Positions 5,468-28,229 of a stretch of DNA of 64,000 nucleotides are shown here, piece by piece. Within the stretch, counting starts at the first letter, position 1; each line of letters starts with the position of its first letter. The notes beneath the pieces were generated by a model that searched no databases, was not told where the DNA came from, and worked only from the letters and a program-made list of their open reading frames with translations. The stretch is from Eledone cirrhosa (taxonomy: Eukaryota). A program made the translations under genes and the position numbers. The stretch spans positions 163,742,001 to 163,806,000 of the forward strand of contig OZ024741.1 of assembly GCA_964016885.1 (NCBI GenBank), written 5' to 3'.

Positions 5468-5674
5468 ATTGTTTCTACTTTTGGCACAAGGCCAGCAATT
5501 ACCCAAATAACAATTGTTTCTACTTTAGGCACAAGGCCAGAAATTACCCAGTGCATTACTGGTACTTTATTTTATCGACCCCGTAAAGGCAAAGTCAACC
5601 TCAGATCGTAAAGGGACGTAACTATGCTGGAAAGCATGGTGTTTGACCCTCTACCGATACTACCAATCCACTGC
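5468..5674 (-). mobile_element. tRNA-type SINE with duplicated 3' terminus
   Basis: Two tandem copies of TTGTTTCTACTTT(T/A)GGCACAAGGCCAG(C/A)AATTACCCA, then the SINE body in reverse. Confidence 0.85.
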
Positions 5675-6073
5675 CCACGATAATATAATAATAATAATAA
5701 GCAACAAGTCGAAAGATTATAGAACAGAACACAGACAAAAACAAATTTCAAAAGTTTTGAACGCATCAACCCCCAATGCCCTCGTAGCTAAAATCAAAAA
5801 CAGCAGCAGCAGTAACAACACTAGTAACCGATGTTACTGGCCTTGAAAAACGAAAAACGTAGAGGAAAAAAAACAAACAAAAAAAAAAACTAAGTCAGAC
5901 ATTCAAACATTACAATGAAACTTATATTTATTTTTTTAAGTTTTTATCTATTTATTTGTTTATTTATTTATTTCGTCTACAGCGTGATGGTGCCACGCTA
6001 AAATCACCGGGGTGATGAAATCACCGGTGGTTATGTAACCATACATTCACCCATCCTCGATTTGAGTGTTTAA

Positions 6074-9000
6074 ATGTCGAACCTAAACAGTTCGAATAAC
6101 GGTGAAGAGGAGACTGGAACGTCATCTGACACACTCTCACCCAGCAAGTGCCCCCTGGCCCAGCAGCAGGGACCTGGGTGTCATCCAAATACTGCTGGTG
6201 TTGGAGGAAGAAGAAGAAGGAAAGGGACAAGAACCAACTGGACGAAAGAATTGAATAGAACTGTAATGAAATGTTACCTGAAGAGTAACCCCAAGGAAAA
6301 AAGCTACAGGAAACGGATGCATAGCATCTGGAACGAGATTGGTCTATTTAAATTAGATGAACAAAAATTGGCCGAGCAGGTTCGGGTAATAAGAACTAAT
6401 GGATGGATAAGCGAGCTGGAACTGGAGGAACTCAGCAGAGAGATTAGGCTGGAAATAGAGAGTGGAGTATGTCAGGCAAACGAGAAAGTGGGAAATGAAG
6501 GTGAAGAGGTTGAGAGAACGGAGGAAGCTTCCGAAGCAGACAATGATCTGAATGCTGAAATAAATAATACCTGGAACAAAGATACGGCCATTGAGGAAAT
6601 GAATGCTGACGGGCTAGGACAAGATATCCTAAACTTAGTGGTAGACAGGAAAAAGGATTTGTAGACAGGAAAAAGGATTTGTAGACAGGAAAAAGTTAAA
6701 AGAAACAACAGCTAAGGTAAAGACAGTCATCCCATACCTTGAGGCGAGGAACCTTCACCAGTGCAACAATATCCTCAAAGCAACAGCAAATGCGGTGAGG
6801 AAATTACTTGGAATAAAAACGAGAGGAAACAACAAACAAGAAAGATCAGAACCTTGGTGGAGGAAACGACTGAATGATCAAATCAAGGAAATGAGAAATG
6901 ACATTGGAAAGTTTGAGTCCTTACTGAATGGGACACAAAACATAGACAATAAAAATAGATTGGAAATAAAGTACAAAACTAGGAGGAAAAAGCTAAATAT
7001 CATCATAGAGGAACTGAAGCAACGCATTGTAGCAAAGAGCGCAAAGATTAGGCGATACGAGAGCAGAGTCAGTCAGTATAGACAGAACCGCATGTTTCAC
7101 AAGAACCAGAAGATATTGTTTGGGCAGCTTGAAGGGAAAGAAAGAGGCAACGACTTGATCCCTGAGGCGGAACAGACTAAGACATTCTGGAGAGGATGTT
7201 AAATATAATGACCAGGCAGTGTGGATTGAGACAGTACAAAAGGAGATTAGTGAACAAGCACACCAACAAACTGATTTGAGTATCACAGTTGTAACTCTTA
7301 AGGGGCAGGCCAAAAAACAAACCAACTGGAAATCACCAGGCCCAGATGGTGTGCAGGGGTATTGGATTAAAAATATAACATCCCTCCACCCGAAACTGAC
7401 AACCATGTTCAATGACTGCTTGATGTCGGGTGAGGTACCAGAGTGGTTGACAAAAGGTACCACAGTTCTGGTAATGAAAGACCGAATCAAGAGTAATGAT
7501 GTTACCAATTATAGACCTATCACATGTCTGTCCGTAATGTGGAAACTGTTAACAAACATAGTGTCTGAGGAAATCTACCATCACCTCCACATAAACAACT
7601 TCTTACCGGACTAACAGAAAGGATGCCGAAAGAAGTCCCGTGCTACAAAAGACCAGTTACTTATTGATAAGATGGTAATGGGGAATTGCAAGAGAAGACA
7701 CACTGGTCTTGCCATGGGATGCATAGATTACAAAAAGGCACATTCGACATGGTACCTCATTCTTGGATAACCAAAAGCCTAGAGATCTTCAAGGTGACAG
7801 ATAACATCAGACGTTGTTGAGCAAAAGTATGAAGTCCTGGGAAACAGAGTTAACATCGGGTGGAGAATCCTTGGGAGGCGTGAAGATCAAGAGGGGTATC
7901 TTGCAGGGAGATAGTTTGTGCCCTTCTGTTGTTTGTCTTTGCCCTGATAGCCCTGACCATTATACTGCGAAAAGTGTGAGCAGGATACAAGTTGGGAAAA
8001 GGAGAGCTTACCATCAACCACCTCCTCTTCATGGACGATCTTAAACTCTTTGGGAAGAGTGAGAAGGAGTTGGATGTACTTTTGACACTGTCAAGTATTT
8101 TCAGCAATGATATATGTTAACAATTTGGTATTAATAAGTGTGGAGTCCTTGTGATGAAGAGGGGTAAATTGAGCAGAAGCAACGGAATCCGGGTACAAAC
8201 AGGTGAGATGATAAAGGAAATTGACACTAAAGGATACAAATATTTAAGTGTTCTGGAGGCAGATAACATCACGAACAAAGAAAATGAAGGAATTGATAAG
8301 ATGTGAGTACATTAGGAGAGTAAGGAGCGTATTAAAATCACATCTAAATAGTAGGAATGTCATAAGTGCAGTGAATTCCCGAGCTGTATCTATTATTAGG
8401 TACAGTGCGGGAATTCTGAAATGGAATGTTGCTTAACAAAAAGAAATGGATAGGAAGACTAGGAAGCTATTGACTATCTACAACAAGTTCCACAAGAGGA
8501 GTGATGTCGATAGATTCTACTTAAGGAGATCTGAAGGTGGAAGAAGTCTTATCAACATAGAGGACTGTGTTCAGATGCAGAAAAACAACCTACACAAATA
8601 CGTGACTGATAGTAAGGAGCCAATGCCCAGAATTGTACTGAAGGAGAGGACAATAGACCAGGGGATGTCCAAGGAGGAAATAACAACAAGGAGCAAGAGC
8701 AGCCTTCATGAAAAATCCCTTCATAGTACCTTCTTTGAGAAAACTGAATTCAGAGATCCACAGACATGGAACTGGTTGAAAAGAGGAGACCTTAAAAAGG
8801 CTACAGAAGGAATGCTATTGGCTGCACAAGAGCAGACCCTCAAAACGAAGTGGTTGAAACACCATATTTACAAGGAGGAGGCTATCCCACTGTGCAGGAT
8901 CTGTGGAGAGAGAGAGGAGACTGTGGCTCACATTGTATCCGAGTGTAAACACCTAGCCCAGACTCACTATAAAGGCTGGAGACATGATGTGATGGGCAGG

Positions 9001-9397
9001 GTGATACATTGGCACCTATGCAAAGTAAACAATTTACCACATTCTGAGAAGTGGTATGAGCATAAGCCAGAGTCGGTGATAGAAAACGATCAGGTGAAGG
9101 TGCTGTGGGATTTTAGGATACAGACGGACAAGAAACTGGAACACAATAGACACGAGAGTGCAAGAGAAGGAGAGGGAGAAAATTAACCGATACCAGGACT
9201 TAAAGTGGGAAGTAAAAAGGATTTGGAACTGCCATGAAGTCAAAGTGATCCCGATTGTCATAGGCGCACTAGGTACTATCTCAAAAAGTTTCCAGGGATG
9301 GTTAAAGAAAATTGTTCCCGCCCCGCTTTTTGGAACACTTCAAAAGGCATGCTTGCTGGGAATAGCAACAACTCTCCGATACGTCCTGAATATCTGA
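6074..9397 (+). pseudogene. Dong/R4 single ORF (RT, CCHC, RLE) broken by stops, frameshifts and a deletion of the PD motif
   Basis: ORF pieces 6074-6664, 6795-7202, 7219-7614, 7814-8044, 8248-8436, 8446-9186 and 9158-9397; the 3' pieces are colinear with the intact ORF 24286-26214. Confidence 0.88.
6641..6695 (+). repeat. 20-bp tandem duplication GTAGACAGGAAAAAGGATTT, about 2.7 copies
   Basis: Direct reading; the TAG at 6662-6664 ends ORF 6074-6664. Confidence 0.9.
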
Positions 9398-9474
9398 GGC
9401 TGCAGGTAGTGGCTTGATATTCACTTCAACAAACTTTTCAGTTAACTAACATCAATGACTGAGACTCAAAGAAC

Positions 9475-9518
<44 letters not shown>
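9475..9518. repeat. (AAT)n spacer between Dong copy 1 and Tx1 copy C (tail to tail)
   Basis: Direct reading. Confidence 0.95.
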
Positions 9519-9763
9519 GGTTTTCTTTATTAACCACAAGGGTTTACATAAAGTAGACATTAAGGACAGTACAGGACAATACAGGACGGTACAAATGGGC
9601 ATTTCTGCGTGTAAAAAAAACAGAGGTTGAAATAAAATAACAAAGAAAAATTCCCCAATAGGGGGGAGACTTCCGAGGGACATTTGTGGAGAAAGCCCAT
9701 TAAAAGACCACAGTGGCCCTGACCTCCAGGGCAAGTGCCCTCTCCCAGTTTTCCACCTGTAAT

Positions 9764-12700
9764 TTACAGACACATACTCAGAGAAGGCCCATTCATTCGG
9801 GCCATACTTGCTTCTCTCACCCATCTTTCAACAAAATGCTGGGAAGAGAGCACTTCCCTCTCTACCCTGATTTTCCTTTTCAAATGAAATTTGAAAAAGT
9901 TAATCAGGGCATCACCGAAGAGGTAAGTGCTCGTCTTCAGCCCTTTCAAACGTGTCCACCATACTATCTCTTTCGCCATGGCCACCAGACAGATAAAAAC
10001 TGCCTGCCCTTCCCGGCTAAAGGAAGGGGGCGGGGCAATCCTCACGATGGACTCAGCTGATAGCTGGATCCGTCCTACACGTGACAGCAGGTGTTCGACA
10101 TAAACCCACAAGTCAGCAATGCTCGGACACTGGACGAGTGCGTGCAGGACGGTTTCGTCGCCCTGCGCGCATCTCGGACATGCCCGGCTGACGGCACCTC
10201 CATGCCTGTAGAGTTTATCCCGAACTGGCAAAGCTCCTCGGTAGCACTGCCAGGCCAGGGATTTCTGGAAGTTGTCCATAGGCCCCGGCCCGAAAGTCCT
10301 TCCGAGGAGATTGGCTAGTTGATTTTCGTCGACGCCTAGAGTTTCTCCAAGTACGTCGTCGCTTTTGCCCTCCACTAATCCCCTATAGAACGCCAAGGTG
10401 GAGTTTACACCGATCACATTGCCCGATTGGTCGAGGGCTGTGAGCGCCTGAAGACATTCCAGTCTCCAAGCGCTCCCTCTCGGTCTTCGCTTGACCCAGG
10501 ACTGCAGCTCCGTCAAGGAGACGAGCTGGGGAAAAACGCGTCTAGCAAACGGCGACCACACCTGATCACCGTCGAGGAAGAGGTGGAGATGTCGTAGCCT
10601 GAGCGCGTGTCTGCGCATCATCAGCCCTCCACGTAGCGGGTGTTGACAGCAGATGGACCGCCTGACCATCGGAGCGCGTCCCTTCCACAAGAAGCGAAAG
10701 AGCAAACGCTCCAGCGCAGTCAGGCGGGGCTTAGGACAAGGTACGACGGTCAGGCGGTAGTAGATGACGGATGCGATGTACGCATTCGCCACCCCCGCTC
10801 GACCTTTCAGGGATAGCTTCCTCTCGGCCCATTTCTGGGTGAGAGAAGCCACCCTGCTCGTCACCTCGTCCCAGTTTTTGTCCGTCTGGAGGTCTGGACC
10901 GAACCAGACCCCTAGCAATTTAACCGGTCCGTCCGTCCAGCGCCAGACGACGCTGTTGGACGGCATGGACCTGCCTCTCCAGGTGCCGAGCTGCAGGTCC
11001 ACTGACTTTTCCTGGTTGATCATTGCTCCTGTCACCGCTTCGTATTCTCTTAGTGTAGTGCCGATCGCCTCGATGTGTTTGGCGTTCGACACCACTACGG
11101 TAACATCGTCGGCATATGCTGACACGGATCTTCCGCATCCTAGTTCGCGCGGGACCCCCCTCAACGTCTCCAGTTTGTGCAGTAATGGCTCGAGAGTCAA
11201 TACGTACAATAGGGACGAGAGGGGACATCCTTGGCGGACCGAGCGCATGATGTTGAACGGTTCCTAAAGGTGACCGTTCACTCTCACTACAGAGCAGATG
11301 TCGCTGTGCATGGCAGCGATCCAGCCTCTGAAGACGGGCCCAAAGCCAGCCGCCCTCAGGACTGCCGCTAGGTAACGATGGTCGACCCTATCGAAGGCTT
11401 TCGATTGATCTAAATTAATCAAAGACCCACCCTTGCCAGGTTCCCTAGCTACCCTCTCTACGATGTATCGCATGAGGTGGAGGTTGTCGTGGATGGATCT
11501 GTCGGGAATGGCGCATGTCTGAGCCTCTCCCACCAGACCACCAACGACAAGCGCCAACCTCTTTGCTAGCACCTTGGCCAAAATCTTGAACTCTGTGTTT
11601 AGCAGAGTTATGGGCCTAAAATTATCTATGTTATCCCCCTTGTTCAGATCCTTTCTCAGCAGCGCCACCGCTCCTCGGCTCACAGAGCTGGGAATTCTCC
11701 CGTTCTGTTGCCAGTTGCAGTAGACGTCCGCCAAGAGGCCTCCGAACAAGTTTGGCATTTGTACGTAAAGTTCATAGGGCAGACCATCTAAACCAGGCGA
11801 TTTACCCCTTGTGCAACTAGTCATTGCATCCCGTACTTCAGCGGTTGTTATCGGCTTTTCGCAACACTCCGCCTCAGTGGCCGAAAGCCGCGGCAGTCCG
11901 TCGAGGTAGACACTAAAGTTCATCCCTCGATCCGGCCCGCCACTGCCTCCGAACAGTTGAGCGAAGTGTCGCTGAAAAGCTTCACACATTTTCCCGGGAT
12001 CGAGTAGCATGCGCCCGTCGTGGTCCACCAAAGACCGGATCGTGGCTTTGTTGCCACGACGCGCCTCCGCCACTCGGGCCTATTGAACGGCTTTCGTCCC
12101 CTCGTGTCTGAGAGCACGCACCCTAGCTCTGACAACGCAGCCTTCGTGCTTTGCCTTGAAGAATTGGTCAAGGGCCAATTTCGCCGCAAGTACGTCGGTC
12201 GCGATGCCTTTGCTAAGCGCCTCATCTAATTTTCTAACTAGTTCTCCCTCTGCTCTATTTTTCTCTATTGCTAAAGTCTTACTAAACCTAATGGACTCTA
12301 TTCTAATTGCTCTTTTCAGAGCAAACCACCACTTGTTGTTGACGATGGCCCCCGTCAACGCCCGCTTAACTAGTTCGCTAATCCGGTCTCTGTAGGCCTT
12401 GCGCGCTGGTAAGGACGCGTTTAGCGTCCAGTAGCCGGGTCCTCGCCTATGAAGCCTATCTAAGTCAAGCACACAGATCACGAATTTGTGGTCCGTGTAG
12501 CTGACTATCTTGAATTGTGGACAGCTTATGCTAGACCTATCTATTTCCCTACAAAATACTCTATCTAGATATGATCTGGATGACCCTATGCGATTTGTCC
12601 AAGTCCACATTGGCAAATTCGGGAAATCCATTCGGTACCTGTCAGACAGTTCAAAACGTCTGAGCAGGTTGGTGAGACTCTTGCACCCTCCTTCCCTATC

Positions 12701-13168
12701 CACTAATCCCACACAAACCCAGCGTGCATCTAAGATCCCGTTCCAGTCGCCCACTAACACTAAAGAGCGGGACGTTCCAAGAAAGGTCTCCAGACGCTGG
12801 AAGAAATCAGGCCGCCCTGCTCCTGTCCGTGCATAGACGGCCACTAACCTGAAAGCTTGCCCGTCTCCGCTGGTCACGTCCAGCACCACCAACTTAACTT
12901 CTGGGTCCAGGAAGATGGCCCGTATGGCAAGATCCAAACCTCTCCGAAAAAGCACAGCAACTCCTCCCCCCGATCCCGGGCGGCTGGGAGATGCGTACAC
13001 ATCGTAGCCGCCGAAGATTGGTGCGAAGGCCTGTGCTTCGGAGATTCTGGTCTCGCTGATGGCCACTACATCTATGTTTAGTGACCTGAGGTCGTTGAGC
13101 AGGTGGCCCTGCTTCCATGACGACCCCAAGCCACGCGCATTTATGCTGCCTATTCTGAGTGAGGTCAT
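9764..13168 (-). pseudogene. Tx1 ORF2 (APE, RT, zinc knuckle) with two in-frame stops (12080, 11264) and a 15-bp deletion
   Basis: MTSLRIGSINARG, YTDHK, NFRPITLLN, LDQSKAFDRVDH, RQGCPLS, YADDVT, CPRC...H...C. Confidence 0.92.
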
Positions 13169-13202
13169 GTTAAAAAGGAGTGGAAAAGATGGGAAAGACC
13201 AC

Positions 13203-15163
13203 TTACCTTACTTCTCGTAGGGGAAGGACGGTTTTTCCATCCTTTTCACTGCTTGTGGCCCCCTCAGGAAGGATGTCCTTATAAATCCTCCTGGAGAGTG
13301 CTTGTCGGAAGTCTCCGATGTCTTTGGGGAATTTTTGTTTTAGTGTCATGTACGTTTTCTGTGTGATGCGAGTGATTTGTATGTGTGGAGGTGGTGTGAA
13401 TTTTGGGGTTGTTGTGTAGTATTTTTCTGTGATGCTGGTGTTGTGTTGGATGTAGTGTAATAATTGCTTGTTGTTCAATTTAATGCTGTGTAGTGTGTAT
13501 CGTTTTGGTTGTTTTGTTTTGTTTGCGTTTGTTGTGGGTTTGTTTCTGTTTCGCATTTTGGTGACTTTTGTGATGTAGGTGATGGTGGTGTTGGGGTTAA
13601 TGATGGTGATGGTGTTAGTGTTTGGGTTGATGGGGTTGGTGATGCTGGTGTGGATGGTGGCATATCTGTCCTAACTTTTTTGTTTCTTAATTTATTTGTT
13701 TCCCTCTGTATTTTGTTTTTGGAGGGGGAAGGAAGAGAATTTTTTCTTTTTTGGTTTCTTTTTTTTTTCCGGATATCGTTTCCCACTCCTCGTCGTCACA
13801 ATCTGTCTCCAGTTGTGATAGGCCGGGGAGTGGAAAATCCTCCACAGCCGTTAGTTTTGGTTGTGGTGTGGTGGATGGTGTAGGCGCTGGTGCTAGTTCT
13901 GAAGCGTTGGGTGGTGGTGGTGTTGGTTTTGCTACTGTTGCTGGGGTTGTTGCTGTTATAGTTGCTTCTGTTGTTGCTGCTACAGTTGTTGCTGCCATCT
14001 CTGCTACTGGTGGTGTTGATGGTTGTGTCACTGGGGTGGGTAGGAGAGGTGGCCTCAACCTTTTAGCCTGAAGGCTGAAAGCCCTTAGGTGGGTTCCTTC
14101 ACCACAAACGACACACCTAGGTCTTCTGCCCTCGATAATTACCGTGAGGTGGCTGCCGTCAGTGAGGTCTATTACCTCTGGGATCTCCTCAATGCTTTTT
14201 TGGTCCGCTTGGATCAGGAGCTCCATCCCAGATCCGGACCAGTTTTCCTGCTTTTCTTTTGCTACTGCTATTATTTTCGTGTTGGCTTCGATGCCGGCGA
14301 GGACAGCCGCTATTAGCCAGGGAATTTCGATGGCCGGTGGAAGGTGGGTCACCCTGATCTTTACGAGTCTCTGGCCACAATAGCTTGGGACGAGTGTGAA
14401 GTCGTCACTTTTTAATGGGGCCATGGAGTGTTCTCTAGCCTCCTCTGGTGTTTCAAAGAACACATCCACGGTTCCATACTTTTGCCCACGTCTGATGTGG
14501 GTTTTTCTTGCCCACACATGTCCCAAAGCTTTTTGGATTTGGGACTCGGATGCCCGTTCCACTCGGCGCGATTTTACATTTATTGTTCTATACGACACGG
14601 TGCATAGGCACCGATGCTCCATTTTATTAGGTTGGGGGGGGGGGTGAGGCTGACACTGTACCCATCTTTCTTTACCATTTGTTTGGCATTTTCTAAATCC
14701 TCTTGAGTTACCGTGAACGCTTCGAATTGTTTTGCTACGATGGCGAATCTGAGGGTCGGTTTTATAATGTCATTGTTGTTGTTGTTGTTGCTATCGTTAT
14801 TTGTGTTAATCTTAATTTTAGTTTCAGTTGTGGTGGTGGTGACGTCAGTCGTCTTTGGTGGGGAATAGTCCATTTTGCTTGATTTCATTTCGACATCACG
14901 AGTTAATTTTTTTTTTTCTTCTTTTGTTTCTGTTGTCGCGGTGGTGGTGGGGGTGGTGGTTGTCGCGGTGGTGGTGGTGGTGGAGGCAGTCATTGGTAAT
15001 GGTGGGAAATGAATGTCTGCCTGAGACAAATTTAAAATATTGCTACTGCTTATATTTTTTTTGTGTTGGCAAACGTAGTAACATTTACAATGGTGGTGTC
15101 GGTGTGAGGTGTTATTTTGTGAGGAAGGCTTTCAGCTGCTTCGTGCAGAGGGGAATTGGCCAT
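13203..15163 (-). pseudogene. Tx1 ORF1 type 2, frameshifted at homopolymers
   Basis: Pieces 14580-15029, 13687-14622, 13475-13786 and 13203-13556; KTHIRRGQKYGTVDVFF aligns with type 1 KTHITRGNKYATVDVLF; CVVCGEGTHLRAF. Confidence 0.8.
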
Positions 15164-15371
15164 TTTTTTTCAAAGAAATTTTTGGATAATAATAAACGTT
15201 AAAATTTTGGGCACAAGGCCCCAATCTTTTTGGGTGTCCTTTTCGGAAAACAATGTATGTGTGCTTATAAACAGTTAACAATAAAATTTTCCATAAATGG
15301 CAATTTTTAACAAACGGAAATAACAAACCTTTGCGGAGCTCACGATGATACGATTTACTACGTAGGTCGCC

Positions 15372-15410
<39 letters not shown>
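15372..15410. repeat. (AAT)n spacer between Tx1 copies C and B
   Basis: 13 AAT units. Confidence 0.95.
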
Positions 15411-15411
<1 letters not shown>

Positions 15412-15652
15412 TTTTCTTTATTAACCACAAGGGTTTACATAAAGTAGACATTAAGGACAGTACAGGACAATACAGGACGGTACAAATGGGCATTTCTGCG
15501 TGTAAAAAACGGAGGTTGAAATAAAATAACAAAGAAATATTCCCCAATAGGGGGGAGACTTCCGAGGAACATTTGTGGAGAAAGCCCATTAAAAGACCAC
15601 AGTGGCCCTGACCACCAGGACAAGTGCCCTCTCCCAGTTTTCCACCTTTAAT

Positions 15653-18600
15653 TTACAGACACATACTCAGAGAAGGCCCATTCATTCGGGCCATACTTGC
15701 TTCTCTCACCCATCTTTCAACAAAATGATGGGAAGAGAGCACCTCCCTCTCTACCCTGATTTTCCTTTTCAAATGAAATTTGAAAAAGTTAATCAGGGCA
15801 TCACCGAAGAGGTAAGTGCTCGTCTTCAGCCCTTTCAAACGTGTCCACCATACTATCTCTTTCGCCATGGCCACCAGACAGATGAAAACTGCCTGCCCTT
15901 CCCGGCTAAAGGAAGGGGGCGGGACAATCCTCACGATGGACTCAGCTGATAGCTGGATCCGTCCTACACGTGACAGCAGGTGTTCGACATAAACCCACAA
16001 GTCAGCAATGCTCGGACACTGGACGAGTGCGTGCAGGACGGTTTCGTCGCCCTGCGCGCATCTCGGACATGCCCGGCTGACGGCACCTCCATGCCTGTAG
16101 AGTTTATCCCGAACTGGCAAAGCTCCTCGGTAGCACTGCCAGGCCAGGGATTTCTGGAAGTTGTCCATAGGCCCCGGCCCGAAAGTCCTTCCGAAGAGAT
16201 TGGCTAGTTGATTTTCGTCGACGCCTAGAGTTTCTCCAAGTACGTCGTCGCTCTTCCCCTCCACTAATCCCCTATAGAACGCCAAGGTGGAGTTTCCACC
16301 GATCACATTGCCCGATTGGTCGAGGGCTGTGAGCGCTTGAAGACATTCCATTCTCCAAGCGCTCCCTCTCGGTCTTCGCTTGACCCAGGACCGCAGCTCC
16401 GTCAAGGAGACGAGCTGGGAAAAACGCGTCTAGCAAACGGCGACCACACCTGATCACCGTCGAGGAAGAGGTGGAGATGTCGTAGCCTGAGCGCGTGTCT
16501 GCGCATCAACAGCCACGGCATGCCCAGCCCTCCACGTAGCGGGTGTTGACAGCAGATGGACCGCCTGACCATCGGAGCCCGTCCCTTCCACAAGAAGCGA
16601 AAGAGCAAACGCTCCAGCGCAGTCAGGCGGGGCTTAGGACAAGGTACGACGGTCAGGCGGTAGTAGATGACGGATGCGATGTACGCATTCGCCACCTCCG
16701 CTCGACCTTTCAGGGATAGCTTCCTCTCGGCCCATTTCTGGGTGAGAGAAGCCACCCTGCTCGTCACCTCGTCCCAGTTTTTGTCCGTCTGGAGGTCTGG
16801 ACCGAACCAGACCCCTAGCAATTTAACCGGTCCGTCCGTCCAGCGCCAGACGACGCTGTTGGACAGCATGGACCTGCCTCTCCAGGTGCCGAGCTGCAGA
16901 ACCACTGACTTTTTCAGGTTGCTCATTGCTCCTGTCACCGCTTCGTATTCTCTTAGTGTAGTGCCGATCGCCTCGATGTGTGTGGCGTTCGACACCACTA
17001 CGGTGACATCGTCCGCGTATGCTGACACGGATCTTCCGCATCCTAGTTTGCGCGGGACACCCCTCAACGTCTCCAGTTTGTGCAGTAATTGCTCGAGAAT
17101 CAATACGTACAAGAGGGACGAGAGGGGACATCCTTGTCGGACCGAGCGCATGATGTTCAACGATTCCGAAAGGTGACTGTTCACTCTCACCACAGAGCAG
17201 ACATCGCTGTGCATGGCAGCGATCCAGCCTCTGAAGACGGGCCCAAAGCCAGCCCGCCTTAGGACTGCCGCTAGGTAACGATGGTCGACCTTATCGAAAG
17301 CTTTCGACTGATCTAAATTGATCAAAGACCCACCCGTACCAGGTTCCCTAGCTACCCTCTCTGCGATGTATCGCATGAGGTGGACGTTGTTGTGGATGGA
17401 TCTGTCTGGAATGGCGCACGCCTGCACCTCTCCCACCAGACCACCAACCACAACCGCCAACCTCTTTGCTAGCACCTTGGCCAAAATCTTGAACTCTGTG
17501 TTTAGCAGAGTTTTGGGCCTAAAATTATCTATGTTATCCCCCTTGTTCGGATCCTTTCTCAGCAGCGCCACCGCTCCTCGGCTCACAGAGCTGGGAATTC
17601 TACCATTCTGTTGCCAGTTGCAATAGACGTCCGCCAAGAGGCCTCCGAACAAGTCTGGTATTTGTACGTAAATTGTACGCAGACCATCCAAACCAGGCGA
17701 TTTACCCCTTGTGCAGCCAGTCATTGCTTCCCGTACTTCAGTGGCTGTTATCAGCTTTTCGCAACACTCCGCCTCAGTGGCCGAGAGCCGAGGCAGTCCG
17801 TCGAGGTAGACACTAAAGTCCATCCCTCGATCCGGCCCGCCGCTGTCCGCGAACAGTTGAGCGAAGTGTCGCTGAAAAGTTTCACACATTTGCCCGGGAT
17901 CGAGTAGCATGCGTCCGTCGTGGTCCACCAAAGACCGGGTCGTGGCTATGTTGCCACGACGCGCCTCAGCCACTCGGGCCCATTGAACGGCTTTCGTCCC
18001 CTCGTGTCTGAGAGCACGCACCCTAGCTCTGACAACGCAGCCTTCGTGCTTTGCATTGAAGAATTGGTCAAGGGCCAATTTCGCCGCAAGTACTTCTGTC
18101 GCGATGCCTTTGCTAAGCGCCTCGTCTAATTTTTTCACTAATTCTCCCTCTGCTCTATTTTTCTCTATTGTTAAAGCCTTACTAAACCTAATGGACCCTA
18201 TTCTAATTGCTCTTAGGAGAGCAAACCACCACTTGTTGTTGACGATGGCCCCGTCAACGCCCGCTTAACTAGTTTGCTAATCCGGTCTCTGTAGGCCTTG
18301 CGCGCTGGTAAGGATGCGTTTAGCTTCCAGTAGCCGGGTCCTCGTCTATGAAGCCTATCTAAGTCAAGCACACAGATCACGAATTTGTGGTCCGTGTAGC
18401 TGACTATCTTGAATTGTGGACAGCTTATGCTAGACCTATCTATTTCCCTACAAAATACTCTATCTAGATATGATCTGGGTGATCCTATGCGATTTGTCCA
18501 AGTCCACATTGGCAAATTCGGGAAATCCAATCGGTACCTGTCAGAGAGTTCAAAATGCCTGAGCAGGTAGGTTGGTGAGGCTCTTGCACCCTCCTCCCCT

Positions 18601-19071
18601 ATCCGCTAATCCCAAACAGTCCCAGCGTGCATCTAAGATCCCGTTACAGTCGCCCACTAACACTAAAGAGCGGCACGTTCCTAGAAAGGTCTCCAGACGC
18701 CGGAAGAAATCATCCCGCCCTGCTCCTGTCGGGGCATAGACGGCCACTAGTCTGCAAGCTTGCCCTTCTCCGCTGGTCACGTCCAGCACCACCAACTTAC
18801 CTTCTGGGTCCAGGAAGATGGCCCGTATGGCGAGATCCAAACCTCTCTGAAAAAGCACAGCAACTCCTCCCCCCGATCCCGGACGGCTGGGAGATGCGTA
18901 CACATCGTAGCCGCCGAAGATCGGTGCGAAGGCCCGTGCTTCAGAGATTCTGGTCTCGTTGATGGCCACTACATCTATGTTTAGTGACCTGAGGTCGTTG
19001 AGCAGGTGACCCTGCTTCCATGATGACCCCAAGCCATGCGCATTTATGCTGCCTATTCTGAGTAAGGTCAC
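15653..19071 (-). pseudogene. Tx1 ORF2 with several frameshifts; start codon reads GTG
   Basis: Pieces 18550-19071, 18213-18530, 16402-18138 and 15653-16405 carrying APE, RT (YADD) and knuckle motifs. Confidence 0.92.
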
Positions 19072-19105
19072 GTTGAAATGGAGTGGAAAAGATGGGAAAG
19101 ACCAA

Positions 19106-21209
19106 TTACCTTACTTCTTCTCGCAGAGGAAGGATGGTGTCACCATTCCTTTTCACTTGATCGTCTGGTGAAGGGACCGTTGAATCGCCCCTTTGGCTTT
19201 GTCGTCGGCTCTTCTGTGAGTATATCCGAATATACTCTCCGGTTGAGTGTCCCTCCTAGGTCTCTGAAATCACCAACTGCGTTGGGGAATTTCGTTTTAA
19301 TGTTTGTGTATTGTTTCTGTGCTATTTTTACCAGTCTTATGTCCGTTGGTGTTTTGATTGGTGCTGGTATTATGTAGTCGTGCTGTGAAATGTCTGTGTG
19401 TTCAATTATGTAAGTCATTAATTTCTTGTTATGTGTATTTATTGCTGTGCATTTGTTTTACTGGGGGTGGGGTGTAGTTCTGCTATTTTATTGTCGGTGT
19501 TGCTGGGTGTGTGTGTTTTGTTGTTGTGTTTGCGATGTTGGTGCTTGTGGTGGTGGTGTTGAAGGTGTTGTTGTTGTTGGCGGTGGTGTTGTCGCCGGTG
19601 GTGGTGCTAGTGTTTGTGGTGTTGCTGCTGTGAGTCTCTTTGCAGTAGCCTTTACCCTTTTTTCATTTCTTTCCTCCTTTTTCGAAGGCGACGATGCGCT
19701 GCTTCTGCGTTTGTGCCTTCTTGCGACCTTTTGCCATCCCTCTCCCACCACACACTCCATGTCCGATTCTGTGAGGTCGGGGAGGGGTACCAGCTCCACT
19801 CTTTCACTTGTTGTTGTTGGTGATGTTTGCAGTGGAGTCTCTGTTGCAGCTGCAGTTGGTATTGCTGTTGTTGTTGTTAATACTTCCACTGCTCCTGCTG
19901 TTCTTGATTTCCGTGGCGTGGGTATGTGTGCCACGGACGTATCCTTCCTGGTTGCCGCCTGTCCTTTTGCTGGTGGCCGTGGAGCCGGTTTCGGAAGGAG
20001 GGGGGTTTTCTCCTTTCTCAGGGTGTTCTCATTGCAGAAGGCCCTGAGGTGAGTCTTCGATCCAAAGCGAAAGCATTTCGGGCGTTTGCCCTCAACACTT
20101 ATGGGCAGTTGAGTGCCGTTATCGAAGTCTATCACATCCGGGATAGCTTCGATGCACTCCTGGTTTGTTTGGATTCTCAATGGAGGTGCCGACCCAATCT
20201 TCTCGTACTTTTTTCTGTACTTGCAGTACAGTTGTTTTGTCCTCGATTCCGACGAGGACAGACGCGGCCAGCCAAGAAGGGGCCACCGGGGGGGGGGGGG
20301 TCATTTTGACCCTCACAATTTTTTGTCCGCAGTAGGAGGCCACCAACACCATTTCCTCGCTCCTTAGGGTCACTAAGGATTGAGCGTTTGCCTCCTGGGG
20401 TGTGGAAAAAAGCACGTCTACGGTGGCATATTTCTTGCTCCGGGTGATATGCGTTTTCCGCTGTCACACAGACCCTAAGGCTTTTTTATTTGAGCCTCTG
20501 TGGCCCTTTCAATCCTACGGGATTTTGTGCTTGCTATACGGTACGTGACCGTACAGTGCTGTTGGGTTTCGAAAAAATGTTCGGCTGCCTTGCAGATTGC
20601 TCGGTGTCCAGTTTTCATCATCATCTTCTTTGCTTCCTGTAATTCCTCATTTGTTATAAATATGGTTTCCAGGTTCTTTGTGATACCTGCAAACGAGATT
20701 GGTTTTTCTTTGCCTCTGTTGTTGTTGTTGTTGTTGTTGTCGTCAGAGCTGCTGTCACTTTTGTTGTTTCTGCCGGTACTACGACTACTGCCGACGCCGC
20801 TGTTGCTGTGGTTGTTGTTGTTGTTGCTGCTGATGCTGTTGTTGTTTATGCTGCTGCTGATGCTTTTGCGGCTGCTACTGTTGTTTTCCTTGTCACTGTT
20901 GCTGCTGCTGCTGTTATTACGGCTGCTACTGCTATTATTCATGACGTCAGACGAATGAAATGGGTTTTCGTATTTACCGCACACCTTTTTCGTCGTTGTC
21001 GTCGTCGTGGAGAAACGTTCCACGTTTTGCACGTGATTTTGGAAACTATTTTTCTTTACTGGCGTCGCTTGCGAAAGAGAAGGGAGGGAGAGAGGCACAT
21101 TTAGAGAAGGGAGGGAGAGAGACAATCTTCTCTCTGGTGTAGTGACGATTGAGGAAGAAGAAGACAGAATGAGTGGGAGTGACTTGTGAAAATTATTTTT
21201 TGTAGCCAT
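19106..21209 (-). pseudogene. Tx1 ORF1 type 1, disrupted
   Basis: MATKNNFHKSLP start; pieces 20475-21242, 20119-20415, 19488-20180 and 19140-19418 match copy A. Confidence 0.82.
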
Positions 21210-21424
21210 GTTTTTTTTTGGTTTAAAATAAATATTGGGCACAACACCCCAATAAGCGGTTATTTAACCATGAAGGGCCAAATAACGGGCAGAAAGACCC
21301 CTCTCACGAGGAGGAGGGTGTTTTTGTCTACAATTTGATTAAAGTTTTAAACAATTTACAATTGTTATAGCGGTTAAAATTTACTATACCTTACAGAGCC
21401 GAGCCTCCGTCAACCATGCCATTC

Positions 21425-21500
<76 letters not shown>

Positions 21501-21503
21501 TAA
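21425..21503. repeat. (AAT)n spacer between the Tx1 B head and Dong family 2
   Basis: Direct reading. Confidence 0.95.
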
Positions 21504-24200
21504 GAGTATAAGGCGCTTTGAAAAACGAGCTACATTCTATAAGGACAATAATATGTTCAAAAACAATCAAAGAAACTTCTACAGAAAAATTGGTAAGTCA
21601 ACAATAACTGCTAAATCAATACCACCCAAGGAGGAAGTGCAAGAATTCTGGGAAAAGATCTGGGCCGAAGAAAAAGTTCATAACATACATGCCCCATGGA
21701 TAGACAGACAAATGAAAGATACAGCTCACCTTGAGGAACAAATACGGGAAAATATAACAGTTGAACAGTTGCGCTTGGCTCTAAGAAAAACCAGCAAATG
21801 GAAATCCCCAGGAAAAGACAAAATACAAAATTTTTGGATAAATGCCTTCACAGAGTCTCATGAGCTGTTAGCCCAACTTTACAATGAAATAGTTAAGGAG
21901 CCAGAAACGATACCATCATGGCTAGTTAACGGCATTATATTCCTGCTTCCGAAGAATGATGAGACAAACAATCCCAAAAATTACAGACCGATAACTTGCT
22001 TGACCACAATGTATAAAATTTTAACATCAGTCCTAACTGAATACACATATGACCACCTGATAACAAATGACCTATTTCCCATTGAGCAGAAAGGGTGTAA
22101 ACGAGGCTCATATGGCAGTAAGAATCAGCTTCTGGTTAACAAAATGATACTGGAAGATTGTCATAATAGACACAAAAATCTATCGATTGCTTGGATAGAT
22201 TATAAAAAAGCATTCGATAGTTTGCCACACAGTTGGATTGAAAAATGTTTAGAGATTTTCAAAATATCCCCCGTTGTCAGGGGGCTTTTGTCATTCAGTA
22301 TGAAGACATGGAAAACGACACTCCTTTTGAATAGTGAAACAAAATCACTGGAAGCTGGAGAAGTTAATATTAATTGTGGAATTTTTCAGGGTGACTCTTT
22401 ATCACCGCTTTTATTCTGCATCGCACTTATACCATTAAGTAAAATGCTCAATGAAACAAAACATGGATATAAAGTCTATGACAAAACCATTAATCACCTG
22501 TTCTACATGGATGACCTGAAACTATTTGCAAAAAAATGATGAACAATTGCAAGGGCTATTATCCACTGTGGAACAGTTCAGTGATGACATTAAAATGGAG
22601 TTTGGTCTAGATAAATGCGCCAAAGCAACGTTCACCAGAGGAAAGCTGCTGAAGAGTTTTGACATTAATCTTGATCGGGAGAACGTGATAAGAGAACTTG
22701 ATCAAGAAAAAACTTACAAATATCTAGGTGTTTGTGAAGGAGACGGAATCAAGCACTCGACAATGAGGGAAAGGATAAGGAAGGAATGTTACCGCAGAGT
22801 AAGAGCAATCTTAAGAACGGAATTGAATGCAAGGAATAGGATCGATGCCATAAACACGCTTGCCATACCAGTAGTAACCTACAGTTACAATGTCATCAAC
22901 TGGTCAAGCACAGAGATCCGTAGGCTCGATACAAAAATTCGAAAATTCTTAACCATGCACAGAATGCATCACCCTAAGGCAGATATAGATAGAATATATC
23001 TCCCTAGGAAAGAAGGAGGGCGTGGGTTAATCCAGTTAGACATTGCGTTGAAAACTGCAACAATTGGATTATCTACATATCTAAGGGAATCACATGATTG
23101 GATGATCAAACTCGTTTTGAAACACGAAAGCATCAAAAGATCATATTCCATTACAAAAGATGCACAAAGATACAGTAATGGACTACAAATTTCAGAAGCC
23201 CCATTTACTGCTGAAATGGAAAACACAGAAAAAGCAAAGCAGGTAAAAGTAACTGCAAAGAAAGAACTGCTACAGAAACTGGCAAAGAAATGGCAAGAAA
23301 AGCCTCTGTATGGAAAATACCCAGAGCGAGCTAACAATCCTGATGTTGACAAAACTTTAATCCATCAGTGGTTGGCATCCTCTGGACTGAAATCGGAGAC
23401 TGAAGGACTGATTATATCAGCACAAGATCAGTGTCTGCCAACAAAAAATTACCAAGCCAACATAATAAAAAATGGATGCAGCCCATTATGCCGTGTATGC
23501 AAAAAACAACCAGAGACCATTGACCATATAATTTCAATGTGCAGTCCTATAGCTCCAACCGAATACCTAAACAGGCATGACAGAGCTGCACAATACATAC
23601 ATTGGATAATGTGTAAGCATTTTGACCTGCCCCATCAAAAGAATTGGTGGGAGCATCAACCACCTCCCATACTTGAAAAAGATCACATCTCAATCTTGTG
23701 GAACTTTAGCATCCAAACAGACCGAAAAATAGATGCAAATAGACCTGATATAATATTGAAGGACTTTAAAAAGAGGGTATGCCTGCTAATTGATATGTCT
23801 GTTCCAATAGACAAGAATGTATCTATAAAAATATTTGAAAAATTGAGCAAGTATAAGGACCTGGAGATAGAAATTGGAAAAATGTGGAAATTGAGAACTA
23901 AAACAATACCAGTGGTTGTAGGCGCTCTGGGAATGATACCTAAGGAGTCTAATGATTACTTATCGCAGATCCCAGGAAACCCGCGTATAGGAGAAATACA
24001 AAAGATAGTACTAATGGGAACTGCCCATATACTAAGGAAGATTCTGTCAATATAAGTACATCACAAGTCTAAACACTAAAGATGCATGTGTGAGTATGTA
24101 TGTTCTTCCTTGAACATGGCGGACCTTGTTGTCTCTTGAGGTCACTGGTTGTGACTTGGTGATAACTCGTATGAACATAAAGCAAGATAAATGCAACTGT
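21504..24200 (+). mobile_element. R4/Dong-clade retrotransposon family 2, 5'-truncated
   Basis: ORFs 21553-22539 and 22526-24055: [57 protein letters not shown]...IDMSVP...EKLSKYKDL; one extra A in the run near 22530. Confidence 0.92.
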
Positions 24201-24206
24201 AATAAT

Positions 24207-24269
<63 letters not shown>
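24201..24269. repeat. (AAT)n spacer
   Basis: Direct reading. Confidence 0.95.
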
Positions 24270-26287
24270 CACATGTCTGCCCGTAATGTGGAAACTGTTG
24301 ACGAGCATTGTGTCTGAGGAAATCTACCATCACCTCCACACAAACAACTTGTTGCCGGACGAACAGAAAGGATGCCGAAAGAAGTCACGTGGTACAAAGG
24401 ACCAGTTGCTTATTGATAAGATGGTAATGGGGAATTGCAGGAGGAGACACACTGATCTTGCCATGGGATGGATAGACTACAGGAAGGCATTTGACATGGT
24501 GCCTCATTCCTGGATCACCAAAAGCCTGGAGATCTTCAGGGTGGCAGATAACATCAGACAGTTGCTGGGCAGGAGTATGGGGTCCTGGGAGACAGAGTTG
24601 ACATCAACTGGAGTATCCTTGGGAAGCGTGAAGATCAAGAGAGGTATCTTCCAGGGAGATAGCCTGTCCCCTCTGTTGTTTGTCCTTGCCCTGATGCCCT
24701 TGACCATTATGCTGCGAAAAGTGAGAGCAGGATACAAGTTGGGAAGGGGAGAGCTTGCCATCAATCACCTCCTCTTCATGGACGATCTTAAGCTCTTCGG
24801 GAAAAGTGAGAAGGAGTTGGATGTGCTTGTTGACACTGTCCGTATTTTCAGCAGTGATATATGTATGCAGTTTGGTATTGGTAAATGTGGAGTCATTGTG
24901 ATGAGGAGGGGTAGGTTGAGCAGAAGTAACGGGATCCAGATACCAACAGGTGAGATGATAAAGGAAATTGACTCTGAGGAAGGATACAAGTATTTGGGTG
25001 TTCTGGAGGCTGATGGCATAAAGAACAAAAAAATGAAGGAATTGTTAAGAACTGAATACATTCGGAGAGTAAGGAGCGTATTGAAGTCACATCTGAACAG
25101 CAGAAATGCCATAAGCGCAGTAAATTCCCGAGCTGTGTCTATTATTAGGTACAGTGCGGGAATTCTGAGATGGAATGTTGCTGAACAAAAAGAAATGGAT
25201 AGGAAGACTAGGAAGCTATTGACTATCTACAACATGTTCCACAAGAGGAGTGATGTCGATAGACTCTACCTAAGGAGATCTGAGGGTGGAAGAGGTCTTA
25301 TCAGCATAGAGGACTGTGTTCAGATGGAGAAAAACAACCTATACAAATACGTGACCTATAGTAAGGAGCCAATGCTCAGAGCTGTACTGAAGGAGGGGAC
25401 AGTAGGCCAGGGGATACCCAAGGAGGAAATAACATCAAGGAGGAAGAGCAGCCTTAAGGGAAAATCCCTTCATAGTACCTTCTTTGAGAAAACTGAATTT
25501 AGAGATCCACAGACATGGAACTGGTTGAGAAGAGGAGACCTCAAAAAGGCTACAGAAGGAATGCTAATGGCCGCGCAGGAGCAGGCCCTCAAAACGAAGT
25601 GGTTGAAGCACCATATCTACAAGGAGGAGGCTAGCCCACTGTGCAGGATCTGTGGAGAGAGAGAGGAGACTGTGGCTCACATTGTGTCCGAGTGTAAACA
25701 CCTAGCCCAGACCCACTATAAGGGCTGGAGACACGATGTGATGGGCAGGGTGATCCACTGGCACCTGTGCAAAGTAAACAATCTACCACATTCTGAGAAA
25801 TGGTATGAGCATAGGCCAGAGGCGGTGATGGAGAACAGTCAGGTGAAGGTGCTGTGGGATTTTAGGATACAGACGGACAAAAAACTGGAACACAATAGAC
25901 CTGACCTGGTGGTTGTGGACAAAGAAAAAAGATCGTGCCTGATTGTGGATGTGGCCTGCCCGTTCGACACGAGAGTGCAAGAGAAGGAGAGGGAGAAAAT
26001 TAACCGATACCAGGACCTAAAGTGGGAGGTGAAAAGGATTTGGAACTGCCATGAAGTCAAAGTGATCCCGATTGTCATAGGCGCACTGGGGACTATCTCC
26101 AAAGGTTTCCAGGGATGGTTAAAGAAAATCGGCCCCTTCACGCTTTTTGGAACGCTTCAAAAGGCATGCTTGCTTGGAACGGCAAGAACCCTCCGATACG
26201 TCCTGAATATCTGAGGCTGCAGGTAGTGGCTTGATATTCAATCCAACGGACTTTCCAGTTAACCAACATCAATGACTGAGATTCAAG

Positions 26288-26288
<1 letters not shown>
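24270..26288 (+). mobile_element. Dong family 1 copy 2, 5'-truncated, young
   Basis: Begins mid-RT (CACATGTCTG, equivalent to about 7521); 3'UTR ends ATTCAAGG then (AAT)n. Confidence 0.93.
24286..26214 (+). CDS. Uninterrupted 642-aa C-terminal part of the Dong polyprotein (RT, CCHC, PD-(D/E)xK endonuclease); N-terminally truncated, expression unproven
   Basis: [57 protein letters not shown]...IVDVACP...EREKINRY. Confidence 0.8.

Positions 26289-26366
<78 letters not shown>
26289..26366. repeat. (AAT)n spacer
   Basis: 26 AAT units. Confidence 0.95.
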
Positions 26367-26369
<3 letters not shown>

Positions 26370-27384
26370 ATGGAATGTTGCTGAACAAAAAGAAATGGAT
26401 AGGAAGACTAGGAAGCTATTGACTATCTACAACATGTTCCACAAGAGGAGTGATGTCGATAGACTCTACCTAAGGAGATCTGAGGGTGGAAGAGGTCTTA
26501 TCAGCATAGAGGACTGTGTTCAGATGGAGAAAAACAACCTATACAAATACGTGACCTATAGTAAGGAGCCAATGCTCAAAACTGTACTGAAGGAGGGGAC
26601 AGTAGGCCAGGGGATGTCCAAGGAGGAAATAACATCAAGGAGGAAGAGCAGCCTTAAGGGAAAATCCCTTCATAGTACCTTCTTTGAGAAAACTGAATTT
26701 AGAGATCCACAGACATGGAACTGGTTGAGAAGAGGAGACCTCAAAAAGGCTACAGAAGGAATGATAATGGCTGCGCATTGTGTCCGAGTGTAAACACCTA
26801 GCCCAGACCCACTATAAGGGCTGGAGACACGATGTGATGGGCAGGGTGATCCACTGGCACCTGTGCAAAGTAAACAATTTACCACATTCTGAGAAATGGT
26901 ATGAGCATAGGCCGGAGGCGGTGATGGAGAACAATCAGGTGAAGGTGCTGTGGGATTTTAGGATACAGACGGACAAAAAACTGGAACACAATAGACCTGA
27001 CCTGGTGGTTGTGGACAAAGAAAAAAGATCGTGTCTGATTGTGGATGTGGCCTGCCCGTTCGACACGAGAGTGCAAGAGAAGGAGAGGGAGAAAATTAAC
27101 CGATACCAGGACCTAAAGTGGGAGGTGAAAAGGATTTGGAACTGCCATGAAGTCAAAGTGATCCCGATTGTCATAGGCGCACTGGGGACTATCTCCAAAA
27201 GTTTCCAGGGATGGTTAAAGAAAATCGGCCCCTTCACGCTTTTTGGAACGCTTCAAAAGGCATGCTTGCTTGGAACAGCAAGAACCCTCCGATACATCCT
27301 GAATATCTGAGGCTTCAGGTAGTGGCTTGATATTCATTCCAACGGACTTTCCAGTTAACCAACATCAATGACTGAGATTCAAGG
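26367..27384 (+). mobile_element. Dong family 1 copy 3, 5'-truncated, with an internal deletion of about 104 bp
   Basis: Near identical to 25167-26288; GCGCA|TTGTGTCC junction near 26777 removes most of the CCHC motif. Confidence 0.93.
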
Positions 27385-27397
27385 AATAACAATAATG

Positions 27398-27430
<33 letters not shown>
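27385..27430. repeat. Imperfect (AAT)n spacer
   Basis: aataacaataatgataat... Confidence 0.9.
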
Positions 27431-28157
27431 GACCTTAAAAAGGCTACAGAAGGAATGTGAATGTTAATGGCTGCGCAGGAGCAGGCCCTCAAAACGAAGT
27501 GGTTGAAACACCATATTTACAAGGCGGAGGCTAGCCCACTGTGCAGGATCTGTGGAGAGAGAGAGGAGACTGTGGCTCACATTGTATCCGAGTGTAAACA
27601 CCTAGCCCAGACTCACTATAAGGGCTGGAGACATGATGTGATGGGCAGGGTGATCCACAGGCACCTATGCAAAGTAAACAATTTACCACATTCTGAGAAG
27701 TGGTATGAGCATAGGCCAGAGGCGGTGATAGAAAACGATCAGGTGAAGGTGCTGTGGGATTTTAGGATACAGACGGACAAGAAACTGGAACACAATAGAC
27801 CTGACCTGGTGGTTGTGGACAAAGAAAAAAGATCGTGCCTGATTGTGGATGTGGACACGAAAGTGCAAGAGAAGGAGAGGGAGAAAATTAACCGATACCA
27901 GGACTTAAAGTGGGAGGTAAAAAGGATTTGGAACTGCCATGAAGTCAAAGTGATCCCGATTGTCATAGGCGCACTAGGGACTATCTCAAAAAGTTTCCAG
28001 GGATGGTTAAAGAAAATTGGCCCCTTCACGCTTTTTGGAACGCTTCAAAAGGCATGCTTGCTGGGAACAGCAAGAACCCTCCGATACGTCCTGAATATCT
28101 GAGGCTGCAGGTAGTGGCTTGATATTCATTTCAACAAACTTTCTGAGACTCAAAGAG
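27431..28157 (+). mobile_element. Dong family 1 copy 4, 5'-truncated, copy-1-like alleles
   Basis: ORF 27461-28102; 12-bp in-frame deletion (ACPF lost); shortened 3'UTR. Confidence 0.92.
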
Positions 28158-28158
28158 C

Positions 28159-28225
<67 letters not shown>
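28158..28225. repeat. (CAA)n tail ending the array
   Basis: About 22 CAA units. Confidence 0.95.

Positions 28226-28229
<4 letters not shown>

Follow-up and report, generated by a model that had tools for sequence, protein, structure and literature searches.

We analysed a 64-kb window of the Eledone cirrhosa genome (assembly GCA_964016885.1, contig OZ024741.1, positions 163,742,001 to 163,806,000), in which seven long interspersed nuclear elements (LINEs) stand in one row, joined by microsatellite tracts. The Dong elements of this train, with a restriction-like endonuclease (RLE), face one way, and the Tx1 elements, with an apurinic/apyrimidinic endonuclease (APE), face the other. Such opposite-facing end-to-end pairing is found, almost always in this form, at hundreds of other places in the genome. 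We think it probable that the trains are made of independent insertions, Dong entering AAT repeats and Tx1 together with a short interspersed nuclear element (SINE) entering ATT repeats, so that strand-opposite nicking renews the elements' own target. Coordinates below are positions in the window unless a contig is named, and the genome searched comprised 3.0 Gb in 1796 contigs.

The seven LINEs are arranged as Dong1(+), Tx1A(-), Tx1B(-), Dong2(+), Dong1(+), Dong1(+) and Dong1(+), connected by six AAT tracts of 39-78 bp. Our annotation therefore bears out the order and orientation that an initial annotation of this DNA had read, as well as its (AAT)n joints of about 40-80 bp. The train consists of the following parts (RT, reverse transcriptase; ORF, open reading frame).

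4876..9474, + strand: Dong1, nearly full length, first ~35 nt missing
9475..9516, + strand: (AAT)14 between the Dong1 tail and the Tx1A tail
9517..15371, - strand: Tx1A, full length, with ORF1 and an APE-RT-zinc-finger ORF2, stop-broken; 3' hairpin AACC-CTTGT-GGTT
15372..15410, + strand: (AAT)13
15411..21424, - strand: Tx1B, full length, frameshifted; of the ORF2 family of Tx1A, with a different 5' untranslated region (UTR) and ORF1
21425..21499, + strand: (AAT)25 between the Tx1B head and the truncated Dong2
21500..24199, + strand: Dong2, 5'-truncated
24200..24269, + strand: ~(AAT)23
24270..26288, + strand: Dong1, 5'-truncated, young, with a 647-aa open frame; its 3' part is 100% identical elsewhere in the genome
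26289..26366, + strand: (AAT)26
26367..27384, + strand: Dong1, 5'-truncated, with a ~95-bp internal deletion
27385..27430, + strand: ~(AAT)15, interrupted
27431..28157, + strand: Dong1, 5'-truncated, of another subfamily
28158..28226, + strand: (CAA)23, the end of the train

The first Dong1 has an ORF from 6074 that is interrupted by stops and frameshifts, and it retains RT, CCHC, RHD and PD..D RLE motifs. Its start is placed at about 4876, the point from which other copies align with the window; those copies themselves begin about 35 nt further upstream, behind an AAT tract. Position 5975, previously given as the start of the train, lies inside the 5' UTR of this element, and the last tail, described as AAT, is the (CAA)23 tract. 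The window copies of Tx1A and Tx1B have ORF2 in common (95% over 3.8 kb) and differ in their 5' halves.

Pfam and structure-sequence searches revealed in Dong1 and Dong2 an RT closest to that of R2 and a C-terminal CCHC/RHD/PD..D region, with a weak second-domain match to the R2 RLE at the C-terminus and no Exo_endo_phos match. The same searches assigned to Tx1A and Tx1B an AP-endonuclease, an L1-group RT and a zinc finger. These domains, together with the junction counts below, uphold the earlier assignment of RLE-type Dong and APE-type Tx1 to opposite orientations. Intact single Dong ORFs exist in other copies (1141-aa and 1216-aa frames with RVT_1), and elsewhere the APE, RT and zinc finger of Tx1 ORF2 lie in one intact 1204-aa frame. 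As all three families have intact ORFs and 99-100% identical copies, they were recently active together. The Dong2 and Dong1 proteins are 35% identical. Tx1 ORF2 shares 29% identity over 974 aa with Xenopus Tx1 ORF2, and its RT scored 229 bits against the latter versus 147-149 against human L1 ORF2p and 50-70 against R2, the databases differing between these scores. In our tree, which did not include Kibi, Koshi and Keno, the Tx1 element joins four proteins (100/100) and meets the named TX1 rows at an open fork. For the divergent N-terminal Myb/SANT domain of the Dong/R4 clade, which lacks zinc fingers and whose published detection needed HHpred on an alignment (PMC7998251), Pfam gave no match in our Dong proteins. 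At least 120 Dong homologues were listed, none under an informative name. Rfam returned no ribozyme or structural RNA at the Dong and Tx1 heads, only low-scoring simple-repeat matches, and the consensus of 19 Dong heads had no stable fold (about -1 kcal/mol); we therefore claim no 5' ribozyme. The first ~200 nt of Dong1 and Dong2 are about 73% alike despite the low identity of their proteins (4876-5075; loci L151-L156).

To place the train in its genomic context, we searched for exact 3'-end patterns, whose counts are lower bounds, and found at least 7481 Dong1, at least 4313 Dong2 and at least 6357 Tx1 ends genome-wide; reversed control patterns gave 0 matches. Clustering was evaluated on the ends listed below 62.03 Mb on contig C1 (97 of 100 Dong1, 100 of 100 Tx1 and 66 of 100 Dong2), with a cluster defined by gaps of <=12 kb. 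In this 62-Mb sample, 201 of 263 ends (76%) were clustered, the biggest cluster holding 8, and the rule of opposite polarity was kept by 130 of 136 neighbours. Two Tx1 neighbours were co-oriented in 47 cases versus 2. Half of the Tx1 ends (51/100) lay <=15 kb from a Dong end, 46 of these 51 on the opposite strand; null means for this proximity were 4.7 with uniform placement and 20.3 at +/-100 kb jitter, with a maximum of 33 in 2000 draws. Junction patterns gave the same picture genome-wide: there were 677 Dong1-tail/Tx1-tail joints versus 0 Dong1-tail/Tx1-head joints on one strand, with 444 Tx1-tail/Tx1-head joints as the positive control for the head motif. Random orientation, which the initial annotation had considered, is thus not what these counts reveal. 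Five further clusters, picked for density, each extend over 20-40 kb as a mosaic in which these families are mixed with older relatives of Tx1 and Dong, so the window train is typical of this genome and not special. In such trains we observed at least two older Tx1 relatives (~75-80% identical) with GGCC-type stems and ATT ends (L044, L050, L054, L061, L193, L224).

The flanks of the elements indicate what each type inserts into. In arbitrarily placed genome tiles totalling 200 kb, 0.08% of 15-mers scored as ATT tract and 0.05% as AAT tract. ATT preceded 28/30 Tx1B and 29/30 Tx1A heads (57/60), joined as ATT/G, in two top-scoring sets that each include the window's own copy. Of the three exceptions, one follows a degenerate tract, one a CTT tract and one DNA free of repeats. 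For the Tx1A whose head adjoins non-repeat DNA, the opposite border of the insertion site was sought within 40 kb and not found. At the Tx1 3' ends, 25/30 scored ATT and the remaining 5 open with ATT units that are few in number or interrupted. A position-ordered set of 40 Tx1 copies had 28 after ATT, comprising 22/22 full-length copies (20 by script; one degenerate and one deleted copy were re-classed by eye) and 6/18 truncated copies with a clean tract, a rate still far above the 0.08% background. This preference exceeds the criterion of >20% of flanks used in PMC4494074. Truncated Dong copies followed AAT in 14/18 Dong1 and 14/16 Dong2 cases (28/34) and never ATT, and full-length Dong heads in 14/19. 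Hence the predicted flank, rather than the non-AAT 5' flank that had been named as the contrary outcome, was seen in most copies elsewhere. In four other organisms from three studies, ATT stood ahead of the Tx1A head in 4/4 runs (runs X4, X5, X12 and X13, with small shares, were left out), indicating that this preference extends beyond the present assembly and species.

Members of both classes are found at (AAG)n/(CTT)n as well, with the same polarity (two Dong2 and two Tx1 truncated copies), hinting that the third base of the repeat may be tolerated. We additionally observed (AAG)n and (AAC)n tracts adjoining elements with AAT-like polarity (1-61 and 28158-28226; L047, L206, L208, L258, L263, L265). 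The proposal that Tx1 is target-specific holds in so far as ATT is enriched; strict microsatellite targeting does not, as the target looks like a short ATTAT motif and only 6/18 truncated copies have a clean tract. Judging from these flanks, the short motif ATTAT is what Tx1 appears to recognise, pure tracts offering many copies of it in close succession, and Dong seems to need the tract more strictly.

The SINE is about 200 bp long, has what reads in its sequence as A and B boxes of the polymerase III type, and presumably resembles octopus SINEs. It has in common with Tx1 a 3' hairpin with the loop CTTGT, followed in each by ATT. The stems around this loop covary: AACC/GGTT in Tx1A/B (87 matches), GGCC/GGCC in a relative and TGGC/GCCA in the SINE (25, with 28 further copies pairing over three positions). 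Single-sequence folding returned the hairpin for Tx1 and a different fold for the SINE. We examined 83 SINE copies with 3' ends from the analysed loci, a sample biased towards trains. On their 5' side, 22/83 had pure ATT and 0/83 an AAT tract. For the 39 without a pure tract, a script found a target duplication in 24, starting ATTAT in 12 and ATTAA in 4; 14 of the 24 duplications were 14-21 nt long, and calls of 8-11 nt may be chance in AT-rich DNA. The ATTAT-led duplications are of 16-18 bp, and two short Tx1 copies show a like duplication by eye (L214, 16 nt; L011). SINEs in the arbitrary tiles mostly sit at short ATTAT-type motifs and not in tracts, which is why the Tx1 machinery seems to need ATTAT, with tracts serving as dense arrays of it. 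Because the 3' hairpin, the ATT tail and the ATTAT-led 16-18 bp duplications are shared, the SINE is likely a passenger of Tx1.

Several further features of the element heads were noticed. The Tx1A 5' UTR contains a second hairpin, GGGC-CTTGT-GCCC, about 150 nt in (15190-15220, - strand), followed by a short ATT run (L121-L150), and Tx1B has a similar 5' hairpin about 180 nt in (21230-21260, - strand). These Tx1 heads may be short elements captured from an upstream neighbour. Several Dong1 copies carry SINE pieces in a short AAT tract of the 5' UTR, some with common breakpoints (5466-5698; L092-L120), which suggests that a Dong1 subfamily is spreading a captured antisense SINE fragment.

Target renewal was assessed at the Tx1-tail/Tx1-head joints, with a pattern that allowed tracts down to 8 nt. 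In the first 100 joints listed, the tract was >=18 nt in 98 and exactly 18 in 17, and its length was a multiple of three in 98. Since some free Tx1 tails comprise no more than one to four units, this 18-nt floor is best read as a 16-18 bp duplication, in agreement with the SINE duplications of 14-21 nt. A growth simulation in which every insertion adds one tract yielded, from 15,000 starting tracts, 79% clustered ends and 10% in clusters of >=7, compared with the observed 76% and 8% (22/263). The 200-kb tiles held 1, 2 and 5 tracts of >=12, >=8 and >=6 units, respectively, so that the genomic tract count is poorly known, and we regard the agreement of the model as consistency, not proof.

In target-primed reverse transcription, the first nick falls on the strand complementary to the RNA. 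To the observed element types, flanks, polarity, clustering, separate copy origin, SINE duplications and CTTGT hairpin, this scheme would add the nicked strands, the nick positions, tail-primer pairing and recognition of the hairpin by the Tx1 RT. For Dong, whose RNA terminates in AAU repeats, the first nick is thus likely made in the ATT strand. The RNAs of Tx1 and the SINE have AUU repeats at this end, so that Tx1 would probably open the AAT strand first; provided that duplications begin where the strand was cut, this nick would lie at the T/A step of 5'-ATAAT, and a second would follow about 16-18 nt on. Nicking of opposite strands would in turn produce the opposite polarity. The repeat tail of each RNA would pair with the freed primer, and the Tx1 RT would recognise the CTTGT hairpin, making the SINE its passenger. 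Each insertion would likely have repeat on both sides, available as a new target: each event would split the tract and add a tail and a duplication, so that targets multiply beside earlier insertions, and because every insertion adds one tract, clusters would grow in a rich-get-richer manner without any further mechanism. We put forward, as a possibility held only tentatively, the broader view that an octopod Tx1 reads ATTAT opposite Dong, recognises the CUUGU hairpin and drives a major octopod SINE, and that mutual target-laying builds thousands of polar trains that form a real share of transposon hotspots.

Several results weigh against a history of independent insertions into self-renewed targets. 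Six of the 136 neighbours violate the polarity rule. Of the truncated Tx1 copies, 12/18 lack a clean ATT 5' flank (2 CTT, 1 ACT, 1 AAT, which is the opposite repeat, and 8 other, about 4 of these 8 with short or degenerate ATT), a flank specificity weaker than that of truncated Dong (Fisher p 0.0007). For Dong, we could not establish a target duplication; for full-length Tx1, the 20 loci inspected (6/20 without a 3' end found) yielded none that was readable, because the flanks there are pure repeat. The growth model fits only with about 15,000 effective tracts; with 75,000 it gave 35% clustered versus 76% observed. Another train repeats an identical Dong2+Tx1B unit, and therefore duplication or misassembly contributes there.

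It could be argued that Dong alone targets the repeat, and that Tx1 inserts with little specificity but, bearing ATT at both RNA ends as a read-through leader and as its tail, creates the tracts that Dong later invades; the polarity would then be due to Dong only. We consider this unlikely, even though full-length Tx1 is nearly always ATT-flanked and truncated Tx1 often is not (22/22 versus 6/18), and even though co-transcription of target sequence is known for R2 (PMC4494074). Truncated Tx1 copies, in which any leader is lost, are still hugely enriched in ATT; conversely, full-length heads without ATT exist, one after CTT repeats and one after non-repeat DNA. The co-orientation of Tx1 neighbours, the ATTAT start of SINE and short Tx1 duplications at unique sites, and a truncated Tx1 lying within the tract ahead of a Dong2 head (L227) likewise speak against it.

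If targeting is real, the long trains might nonetheless have grown mainly as tracts and elements recombined by unequal crossing-over or were duplicated in tandem, an origin to which we give little credence. It is favoured by C1:55.42-55.46 Mb, where a Dong2(1888-2700)+Tx1B unit with the same truncation point is repeated next to equal-length Tx1B runs, and by a spacing of 395 bp among three Tx1 ends at C1:45.78 Mb. In the window, by contrast, the truncation points all differ, and four other inspected trains are mosaics of differing families and truncations. Bearing on INDEPENDENCE and on the artefact question, 6/8 window copies have closer relatives elsewhere among the analysed loci than in the window; the other two are the Dong2, for which the window offers no sister to compare, and the long Dong1, an older copy that lacks close relatives in the sample. 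An assembly artefact, in which separate copies were joined at microsatellites and polarity would also survive, appears highly improbable. Short-read contigs do end at the tract, but the tracts are merely 39-78 bp, far below read length. Moreover, two restriction-site-associated DNA sequencing (RAD-seq) runs had flat depths of 36 and 40 over the whole Dong1-AAT-Tx1A tract (9471-9521), which we read as spanning reads of the junction class, possibly including polymerase chain reaction copies, and not as proof for this locus. A short-read contig from another organism also links a Tx1-like tail end via ATT to a Tx1A head (X10, a loose end). Independent insertion therefore remains our preferred account of the window train. 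At C1:55,423,000-55,456,000 (L165-L168), we observed five near-equal full-length Tx1B with intact ORF2 and the repeated Dong2+Tx1B unit, an array that is a tandem duplication or misassembly.

R1 and R2, which differ in endonuclease chemistry, both occupy 28S rDNA, and TRAS belongs to the R1 clade. SART and TRAS, both R1-clade APE elements of telomeric repeats, resemble the present case in that two families use one simple repeat in opposite orientations. The target here is interstitial (163.7 Mb within a 416-Mb contig), occurs at numerous sites and is shared by RLE and APE elements. The idea of an interstitial SART/TRAS analogue is accordingly sound for the opposite orientations in one simple repeat, and fails for membership of that system, the elements being interstitial and of the R2 and L1 groups. 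In Bombyx, SART and TRAS enter (TTAGG)n and have a similar structure (PMC7265360). Here and below, statements on published systems refer to the available text of the cited sources. The sharing of one target by RLE and APE families is already known: Keno (Tx1, APE) and Utopia (RLE) share a U2 snRNA gene site (PMC4640811). Keno/Utopia thus likewise bring two endonuclease chemistries to one target, which in their case is a gene site with the same 3' flank, whereas the target here is a microsatellite of which each family uses a different strand and which insertion renews.

Dong, of the R4 clade, has a (TAA)n target (PMC3812793), reported for most insects, molluscs and cnidarians (PMC7998251). The Dong elements of Bombyx mori, DongAg, DongBg and ostracod Dong are like ours in having a single ORF with RT and RLE and this target, which is therefore nothing new; what differs is that two 35%-identical families share it and form long mixed trains with Tx1. 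In Octopus vulgaris, Dong-R4 is abundant and recently active (PMC13282606, Table 1), and abundance of both Dong-R4 and L1-Tx1 is reported (PMC13282606, PMC8967140). Microsatellite-aiming APE elements of the Tx1 clade include Kibi at (TC)n, Koshi at (TTC)n and crocodilian Tx1 at (TTCC)n/(TTTC)n (PMC4494074). Compared with these, the present Tx1 has an (ATT)n target, an ATT tail after the CTTGT hairpin and an RLE family on the other strand. SINEU is inferred to ride on crocodilian Tx1-Mar from a shared target and tandem insertions around a duplication (PMC4494074), and shared 3' stem-loops mark stringent LINE/SINE pairs (PMC3747384). The SINE here is similarly a putative Tx1 rider with a shared 3' stem-loop, but its link consists of the covarying CTTGT hairpin, the ATT tail, polarity and duplications, and it is very abundant and has polymerase III-like boxes. 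SINEs make up 11.6% of the O. vulgaris genome (PMC13282606). The available text of PMC4758252 names octopus SINEs without a Tx1 link, and that of PMC13282606 maps LINE hotspots without discussing targets (neither "target" nor "nested" occurs).

Our literature search found no ATT-aiming Tx1, although Repbase, Kojima & Fujiwara 2004 and the target figure and supplements of PMC4494074 lay outside it and may list one. Nor did it find mixed Dong/Tx1 trains or a Tx1 partner for an octopus SINE. Each ingredient thus has precedent, and the combination was not found in the literature searched. If true, our proposal would give the Tx1 clade a new target (ATT) and identify two unrelated nucleases that in nature divide the strands of a single three-letter repeat between them, a simple system for asking whether the nuclease or the pairing of RNA tail and primer sets site and strand choice. 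It would also supply an abundant SINE with a partner and explain mechanistically how some of the LINE hotspots of cephalopod genomes arise, and caution would be due with assemblies and AAT microsatellite markers of these genomes, as they lie in unstable arrays.

The train does not stand alone. It had been assigned to a single microsatellite, which the neighbourhood does not bear out, as more elements lie to the left on flipped ATT tracts, followed by a further AAT train. These left-hand elements (SINE(-), a third Tx1B(+) and SINE(+)), and the SINE pieces inside the first Dong1, are as follows.

62..270, - strand: SINE, tail in (AGA)n and head in an AAT tract, left of the span first annotated
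278..350, no strand: palindromic tract, (AAT)5 then (ATT)19, polarity flip
351..4642, + strand: Tx1B copy, RT region internally deleted, ATT on both sides
4643..4693, + strand: (ATT)17 tract
4694..4875 (body to 4860), + strand: SINE with CTTGT hairpin and (ATT)5 tail
5466..5680, - strand: SINE pieces within a short AAT tract of the Dong1 5' UTR

The further AAT train has four LINEs and ends about 360 bp before the window start. Altogether the cluster is about 40 kb long and changes polarity twice, each time at a palindromic AAT/ATT tract, and across these flips every element obeys its own rule relative to the local strand. Polarity-flip sites were noted at 278-350, at 4861-4876 and at C2:163,729,735-163,729,781. 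The stretch 293-4875 could be an inverted block, whose inversion would restore a single polarity; this fits the sequence, and palindromic AAT/ATT tracts would explain it equally well.

Tx1 elements headed by snRNA sequence and of the Keno type are known. Among Tx1 relatives in Joint Genome Institute (JGI) metagenomes (34 loci, 15 inspected), which are distant and mostly incomplete, we found no ATT tracts and no hairpin; some (L271 1-100; L283 1-100) sit behind sequence that we take to be U1-like and U2-like snRNA. Within the window, a separate, stop-broken APE-RT LINE at 51560-54700, presumably RTE-like, has no flanking AAT tracts.

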